Translations under genes and position numbers: made by a program
Assembly (NCBI GenBank): GCA_964016885.1
Contig: CAXHJY010000218.1
Span: 1-53,072, forward strand
Length of the DNA: 53,072 nucleotides
From: Eledone cirrhosa
Taxonomy: Eukaryota
Direction of reading: 5' to 3'
Part shown: positions 24,417-25,752 of the stretch, piece by piece
Layout of the letters: the number at the start of each line of letters is the position of its first letter
How positions within the stretch are numbered: the stretch's first letter is position 1
Notes under the pieces: generated by a model
The model's database searches: none
Told to the model about the DNA's origin: nothing
What the model saw: the letters and a program-made list of their open reading frames with translations, nothing else

Positions 24417-24540
24417 AAGGGAGAGAATTGGGAGTGTGTAACACTCCACTTATCAAGTAGGCAGTATATGGTGAGCTCAATGTCAGAGGACAGAGCCGTA
24501 ATACAATTAACAACAAAGAGCGCTTAGAACATAGGTATAT

Positions 24541-24598
24541 CTTTAATTGCTAACAGTGTTTCGCCCACACTAGAAGTGGGACTCTTCAGAGCATAAAG
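24541..24598 (-). ncRNA. Type I hammerhead ribozyme motif
   Basis: ctttatgct-CTGAAGA-gtcccact(tct)agtgtgggc-GAAA-cactg-TT-agcaattaaag. Confidence 0.8.
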
Positions 24599-25405
24599 AG
24601 TAAATACAAAGTATACAAGCATTGACAAAGCCAAAACAGAAGAATATATGTGGGGATACCATAAGTTGGGAGGAGTTTAAAGAGTAAAGTAAAAGGAGCA
24701 AAATAAGAGGAGTAAAATAAAAATAAACATAAAAATAAGCATTTGCCAGTCTTATCTTTACCCACACCTTCCTTTATGGTGTATATTTTACTCCATTTTT
24801 TTTGGTGTATTGTTTTATTTATCTTCTGGTGTATATTTTACTTTATTTTATATTATTTTATTTTATTTTATTTTATTTTATTTTATCTTATTTTATTTTA
24901 TTTTATCTTATTTTATTTTATCTTATTTTTTATTTTTTATTTTTTATATTTTATTTTTCATTTTTTATTATTTATCTTTTATCTATTTTTTAGCTATTTT
25001 TTTATCTATTTCTTATCTATTTTCTTATCTATTTTTTATCTATTTTTTATCTACCTCTTATCTATTTTTTATCTATCTCTACCTCTTAACTTGTGCCCAT
25101 CCGTCTATGATATGTTATTTGTATTAGTGTATACTGTATGTGTTGCATACGGGTGCATGTGTGTAGGTGTATGCGGGTGCTCATGCTTATGTATATAATT
25201 GTATGTAGCTGTATGTTAACGTAACCCTGCCCAACTGTGAGTGATAACATCTCTTATTTTTTATTATTTATTTTTTTATTATTTATTATTTATTATTTTT
25301 TATTATTTATTATTTATTATTTTTTATTTTTCATTTTTCATTTTTCATTTTTCATTTTTCATTTTTCATTTTATTATTATTATTATTATTTTTATTATAT
25401 TTATC

Positions 25406-25453
<48 letters not shown>

Positions 25454-25642
25454 TTTATTTTTATTCTTAATCTTATTCTTTTTTTAATTTTTATTCTTAA
25501 TCTTATTCTTATTTTTATGTTTATTTTACTCCTCTTATTTTGCTCCTTTTACTTTACTCTTTAAACTCCTCCCAACTTATGGTATCCCCACATATATTCT
25601 TCTGTTTTGGCTTTGTCAATGCTTGTATACTTTGTATTTACT

Positions 25643-25700
25643 CTTTATGCTCTGAAGAGTCCCACTTCTAGTGTGGACGAAACACTGTTAGCAATTAAAG
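25643..25700 (+). ncRNA. Type I hammerhead ribozyme motif
   Basis: ctttatgct-CTGAAGA-gtcccact(tct)agtgtggac-GAAA-cactg-TT-agcaattaaag; predicted cleavage after 25689. Confidence 0.82.
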
Positions 25701-25752
25701 ATATACCTATGTTCTAAGCGCTCTTTGTTGTTAATTGTACATATATATATAC

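Follow-up and report, generated by a model that had tools for sequence, protein, structure and literature searches.

Inverted hammerhead arms with a one-sided tail in Eledone cirrhosa: a likely 5'-truncated Penelope-like insertion

Contig CAXHJY010000218.1 of Eledone cirrhosa (assembly GCA_964016885.1) holds a repeated, protein-less element with inverted hammerhead arms and an 85-nt tail at one end only, set in (TA)n. We argue that it is very likely a single insertion of a Penelope-like element (PLE) truncated at its 5' end, with ribozymes for which no activity is predicted at this locus. The window is the whole 53,072-nt stretch of DNA that was analysed; it is AT-rich and eukaryotic, and about 50% of it is low-complexity sequence or simple repeats.

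Several features of EN+ PLEs occur together here: an inverted copy of the terminal repeat at the 5' end, a tail at one end only, a type I hammerhead in the terminal repeat, and an insertion bias for (TA)n. A sequence-only reading had named inverted 5' repeats as a signature of PLE insertion, and this combination supports it. Membership of the PLEs rests on architecture, because no parent with RT and GIY-YIG was found among the 149 frames scanned in the window. The arrangement itself is already in print (PMC4209133, PMC3846280, PMC8557442). Statements on published work refer to the accessible text of each source.

The element and its parts

22707 to 24416, no strand: left flank, a degenerate (TA)/(TACA) microsatellite array and the likely insertion target (TRF and sequence)
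24417 to 24501, minus strand: 85-nt tail, on the left arm only and part of the repeat family (arm comparison, fold and run depth)
24502 to 24739, minus strand: left arm, the inverted 5' copy of the terminal repeat (pLTR) (alignment and composition switch)
24540 to 24599, minus strand: type I hammerhead motif, predicted cut 3' of 24552, carrying the private change at 24564
24740 to 25501, plus strand: T-rich low-complexity spacer with the polarity of the right arm, likely 5'-truncated body or 3' UTR
25502 to 25739, plus strand: right arm, the pLTR in the element's own orientation, without a tail, at the family's short terminus
25642 to 25701, plus strand: type I hammerhead motif with a GUU site, predicted cut 25689/25690
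25740 to 25891, no strand: right flank, a (TA)/(TACA) microsatellite (TRF)

The two arms are inverted copies of 238 nt, identical at 234 positions (98.3%), so the near-identical outward-pointing copies first read as ~235 bp long are borne out. Three of the 4 mismatches sit at the low-complexity inner end, and the outer 216 nt hold a single difference, at 24564/25677. The left arm extends 85 nt beyond the end of the right arm before (TA)n begins, and this tail holds a predicted 7-bp hairpin with an AC-rich 3' strand at 24431-24447. Both ends of the element adjoin (TA)n arrays, which fits an insertion bias for (TA)n. No target-site duplication is discernible at the left flank. The window has no direct (tandem) copy of the arm, and a partial tandem pLTR arrangement is absent at the locus.

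Composition polarizes the element. It flips sharply from A-rich to T-rich at 24739/24740, and the plus strand of the spacer is T-rich and runs on continuously into the right arm. The smooth join at one side and the flip at the other would give a plus-strand body with its terminal repeat at 24740-25739. The whole is best read as a tail-bearing inverted copy that precedes this body.

There is no credible coding frame in the element. The spacer was said to be of low complexity and to lack an ORF, and this holds: its only long ATG frame (140 codons, rich in Phe, Ile, Leu and Tyr) is a consequence of the T-rich base content. None of the ATG frames that overlap or follow the ribozyme runs beyond 32 codons. 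Pfam gave no match in five frames of the element (the 140-codon frame lies outside that scan), and among 149 window frames it detected neither RT nor endonuclease nor transposase; these frames comprise 147 of the 159 frames of at least 45 codons from unmasked sequence and 2 frames from the tail. Pattern scans for relatives were no more productive. Two scans of metagenome contigs gave 0 matches; a scan of viral contigs gave 12, all to the generic hammerhead core with unrelated flanks; and one of prokaryote genomes gave 1 match of 20 nt that lacks the upstream core, which we take as chance.

The hammerhead motifs

The conserved core and the three helices of a type I hammerhead are present in both arms. 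In the plus-strand motif helix I has 4+6 bp, helix II 4+3 bp and helix III 2 bp, and helix III closes on a 3-nt near-palindromic loop. The inverted arm begins about 140 nt upstream of helix I. A type I descriptor has 3 matches in the window, at 25652(+), 24589(-) and an unrelated 32038(+), against a mean of 0.17 and a maximum of 2 in 60 order-3 Markov simulations of the window. The descriptor thus confirms the earlier statement that each of the two ribozymes has a complete core. The cut site once given as 25689/25690 is right as a predicted position, since H17 lies at 25689(+); on the other strand it lies at 24552(-). Rfam Hammerhead_1 matches the arms weakly, at 18.4 and 15.2 bits (E 0.32 and 3.6) against a gathering score of 34. 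A whole-window Rfam scan is dominated by microsatellite matches and has no hammerhead among the matches listed (150 of 501).

These motifs resemble the PLE hammerheads of Drosophila, rotifer, shrimp and mosquito, and of Saccoglossus in supplement 2, described in PMC4209133. They share the type I form with its CUGANGA/GAAA core, the G10.1-C11.1 pair, a 7-bp helix II, a U-rich 5' side, a near-palindromic helix III, a GUU or GUC site and an occurrence in opposite-strand pairs. That source reports small palindromic helices III in shrimp and other PLEs and many GUU sites. Opposite-strand hammerhead pairs were described in 2014, and PMC4209133 places dual hammerheads on opposite strands 100-700 bp apart.

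A third type I hammerhead (core at 32038, plus strand) has a long helix II and a palindromic helix III. It occupies 31966-32135, a 170-bp island between (TA)n arrays without an Rfam match, and is likely a solo pLTR from a different PLE family. A related pair of decayed motifs that resemble a minimal hammerhead lies at 33898-33945 and about 36433-36465.

The repeat family in public sequencing runs

The element belongs to a multicopy family. Seven public runs share part of 24417-24760, each with less than half of the sampled words; no RNA run is among those listed, and the shares of X6 and X7 are small. The stretch 24417-24830 was compared with four of them, X1, X2, X5 and X8 (15, 78 and 2 contigs and 1,827 reads), and the records compared cover neither the inversion junction nor the spacer beyond its start. 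The first ~80 nt of the spacer are multicopy too, judged by run depth over 24753-24830.

The family terminates in TA repeats at the long end and at the short end alike. TA-rich loose ends unlike the locus's own flanks occur at 24418 (X1, 1 contig) and 24501 (X2, 2 contigs). Tail depth equals the depth of the arm's end in the run data. Contigs with 2-8 differences cross the boundary between tail and arm among the pieces listed (18 of 96), with just 17-29 letters on the arm side against a 31-letter rule.

Summed depth, which is not copy number, falls inward from the 3' end. In X2 it is about 8,200-10,600 over 24431-24528, 1,700-2,800 over 24557-24640 and 340-1,030 at the start of the spacer. In X1 the values for the same three stretches are 300-620, 160-270 and 54. 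The drop in both runs fits 5' truncation.

The family also bears on how the two arms arose. The arms agree with each other at 24609 and 24699, where most family contigs and reads carry another base. These two common minority bases argue for one template and one event. At 24564 every covering record has the base of the right arm (1,498 of 1,498 reads in X8 and all contigs of X1, X2 and X5), so the G of the left arm is private. The two ribozymes had been said to differ at one stem II base, U-A versus U-G, with pairing kept. The single stem II difference (24564/25677) stands, but the kept pairing is no sign of selection: the U-G pair reflects either a private mutation or an error, and we reject covariation, for the G occurs in the left arm alone.

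Run X5, labelled as another organism, has a piece (17) on 24554-24679 that matches the arm with only two family-majority differences and continues into letters like the arm's opposite strand. This may be a further inverted copy from a related species, or else carried-over DNA.

Family variation mostly spares the core and stems of the ribozyme, and on this sequence evidence the hammerhead appears to be under constraint. Within 24502-24706, listed variants fall at 1 of the 50 core, stem and loop III positions and at 22 of the 155 others (one-sided Fisher p=0.010). They fall at 4 of the 10 tolerant ribozyme positions, namely N7, loop II, the helix I bulge and H17 U to C (p=0.002 against 1 of 50). 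One family variant changes GUU to GUC, and the lone stem variant (24593) can, in our interpretation, be absorbed by a shift of register. It should be noted that the private site 24564 was dropped from this test, that it uses listed variants only, that most of these come from a few related subfamilies, and that much of the X8 depth is one RAD locus. The hammerhead probably works in the tandem RNA of the parent, as a dimer or with the help of a protein.

How the element may have been inserted

We argue for target-primed reverse transcription with 5' truncation, as PLE biology suggests. The parent's GIY-YIG endonuclease would nick an AT-rich target. Its reverse transcriptase would then copy, as the plus strand, the final ~1 kb of the template RNA, which comprises the spacer and the pLTR, and an inverted pLTR copy would be added at the 5' end during the same event. 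The 3' ends of the two copies would be fixed and would lie 85 nt from each other, as expected from two RT start sites. The ribozyme is doubled in this scenario because it lies within the terminal repeat, which was duplicated.

Published EN+ PLEs have the same parts. In PMC8557442 an inverted 5'-truncated copy often flanks the PLE unit, a 30-40 bp tail occurs at either end, hammerheads lie within pLTRs, and a (TA)n bias hides duplications. PMC3846280 describes inverted pLTRs, a 31-bp tail, captured spacers and junction palindromes. Like these 5'-truncated insertions, the element has inverted terminal copies, a tail at one end, a pLTR hammerhead, a (TA)n target that masks duplication and a non-coding spacer ahead of the pLTR. 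It differs from them, as they are described, in its 85-nt tail and in having no ORF remnant. Penelope elements are associated with (AT)n in penaeid shrimp (PMC7878876), whose load of dinucleotide repeats the window may resemble. Naiads lack canonical hammerheads in the account of PMC8557442, and by analogy a (TA)n target with a canonical hammerhead would fit a Neptune-like element better than a Naiad.

A model for the tail is Poseidon of Anolis (PAc), where the tail is the stretch between two RT starts and cleavage prefers ATT (PMC11167929). Both elements have two 3' ends that delimit the tail, an AC-rich stem-loop near the end, an AT-rich target and a ribozyme upstream of the RT starts. The ribozyme of PAc overlaps the start of the ORF, unlike the one here, where the frames soon stop.

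One can imagine a variant of this scenario in which the ~1 kb non-coding body is itself the whole mobile unit, a non-autonomous PLE derivative moved in trans. We count this possibility, which we hold only tentatively, within our main conclusion. The spacer has no trace of coding sequence, and its start occurs in many copies; piece 8 of X1 matches it with 0 differences. Non-autonomous Chlamys PLEs are known (PMC8557442), as are captured spacers ahead of pLTRs (PMC3846280). However, the arm is covered several times more deeply than the spacer's start, which is what truncation would produce.

A MITE or other non-autonomous DNA transposon, with 236-bp TIRs and a TA duplication, would have the hammerhead as a passenger and would lie beside an unrelated 85-nt repeat. 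We consider this very unlikely. Both arms end on TA, so 24504-25737 can be read as TA-flanked, and the window also contains a mariner-like remnant whose ends are symmetric. Yet contigs that differ from the locus copy at 6-8 positions also pass from arm into tail, the tail is as deep as the end of the arm, and depth along the arm is uneven. It is the ribozyme, 40-100 nt inside, that is constrained, whereas positions 3 and 19 nt from the tip vary. The same one-sided tail recurs in another family of the window. A simple MITE is rejected, as symmetric TIR ends were not found and the family continues 85 nt past the arm at one end.

Predicted folding and cleavage

Having argued for a truncated PLE insertion, we turn to what its RNA would do. 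The isolated 60-nt motif is computed to form helices I and II with probability >0.95 and helix III with 0.02. Within the arm, helix I falls to at most 0.004 because upstream and downstream strands compete. The monomer hammerhead in its pLTR context is therefore predicted to be inactive. For the G10.1-C11.1 pair the computed probability drops from 0.47 in the right arm to 0.005 in the left, and the private G is predicted to move helix II to another register.

Each strand carries one sense ribozyme, which is transcribed after its own complement. Cleavage and duplex are thus alternatives, and the duplex is predicted to win in a transcript across the element. The computed fold of read-through RNA brings the arms together at -480 and -463 kcal/mol for the two strands, with 59 of 60 and 60 of 60 bases of the ribozyme paired to the opposite arm. 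Transcription in either direction had been expected to give a self-cleaving RNA together with a long duplex. This expectation fails, since the predicted duplex buries the ribozyme and makes the two mutually exclusive. A transcript across the copy could give a ~235-bp duplex, a possible source of siRNAs rather than a self-cleaving RNA. Inverted Penelope copies do yield siRNAs (PMC3681739).

The same folds weigh on the idea that the element is a functional bidirectional ribozyme cassette, similar to a retrozyme, which would cleave the transcripts of both strands and produce circular or duplex RNA. Both cores are complete and the isolated motif is predicted to form helices I and II. Like non-LTR retrozymes (bioRxiv 10.64898/2026.07.22.740005), the element is non-coding, has a type I hammerhead and is related to PLEs. 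But with one sense ribozyme per strand, no circle can be excised and no dimer can form within one RNA. The motif is predicted to be buried in read-through RNA and to lose helix I within the pLTR, and the U-G change is private. Retrozymes are defined by, and require, tandem direct units in the accessible text of that preprint; here there are none, and the two ribozymes are on opposite strands. We reject a retrozyme on the single sense motif per strand and the lack of any direct repeat of the arm in the window, and regard a functional cassette as highly improbable.

Least of all do we credit a fold-back artefact of assembly or library, for although the surroundings are simple repeats and no listed record spans the whole compared stretch, the arms differ at 4 positions and have different termini, independent contigs show TA repeats after each of these termini, and on these grounds we reject it.

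A second long-tailed family and other features

5827 to 6009: second family, first copy of an asymmetric fold-back in (TA)n (arm and sequence comparison)
40972 to 41167: second family, second copy of an asymmetric fold-back in (TA)n (arm and sequence comparison)

The tail of the truncated PLE is about twice as long as the published 30-40 nt, and no PLE tail >40 nt was found in the accessible literature searched, which excludes Repbase and most subscription journals. The asymmetry of a long and a short arm had been matched to the elements at 5.8 and 41 kb. They do share it, with a tail of about 78 nt, but they are not the same family (no BLAST match better than E 2). No complete hammerhead core occurs in either, and Rfam finds no ribozyme family in the 41 kb element or in the one at 32 kb. 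A GAAAC...GUC stretch in this second family may be half a hammerhead. Both copies have a 2-4-nt centre around which the arms start with the same five bases, and this points to a template whose 5' end is fixed.

The short ends of these two unrelated families fall at the same TATTAC motif, where the 78-nt tail of the second family starts. At their long ends both families are rich in pyrimidines and terminate in TT. With two families, the common TATTAC may be a coincidence or reflect TA microhomology to the target.

We also considered a long-tailed type of PLE (78-85-nt tails) in which the downstream strand would act as an off-switch for the ribozyme, released when the element's protein binds the region of the RT start. 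In the hammerhead family, the stretch from the cut site to the short end pairs with the 3' strand of the ribozyme with a computed probability of about 0.9; 48 of 2000 shuffles pair as well, in one test that was chosen after the fold had been seen. Blocking the downstream strand lifts helix I to just 0.05 by computation, because an upstream hairpin also competes. We think such a switch unlikely. If true, it would couple cleavage to retrotransposition.

Other repeats in the window deserve mention. A near-perfect symmetric palindrome of 378 bp lies in (TA)n at 21947-22324, without a tail. A 211-bp inverted pair (19455-19665 / 21170-21380, 96% identical) encloses ~1.5 kb of mostly simple repeats, and no hammerhead was found in it. 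At 52205-52419 is a short TA-flanked element with symmetric 41-bp inverted ends, which we take to be mariner-like from those ends; a related end lies at about 51998-52030. A 130-bp repeat (25897-26027 and 35430-35555, 85% identical, opposite orientation) begins 160 bp downstream of the hammerhead element. Three copies of a 400-600-bp repeat (4815-5422, 17478-18057 and 27746-28149, 89-97% identical) each have a weak C2H2 zinc-finger match on the minus strand, and this repeat is possibly the end of a LINE. A U6 snRNA copy at 30022-30127 (minus strand, 99.6 bits) lies beside a short repeat family (12102-12206, 29667-30238, 34949-35166 and 41861-42012).

Conclusions

Structurally the element is a textbook case of a truncated PLE insertion and matters little as such. 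What the family adds is sequence-level evidence of constraint on a PLE hammerhead. This constraint contrasts with poor cutting in vitro, as the monomer tested in PMC4209133 was uncleaved and multimers cleave at a low level, and with dispensability in the one system tested, where the ribozyme is assisted by protein and insertion in vitro proceeds without it (PMC11167929). The extra length of the tail and the common motif at the short ends offer a lead on how the 3' ends of PLEs are set.
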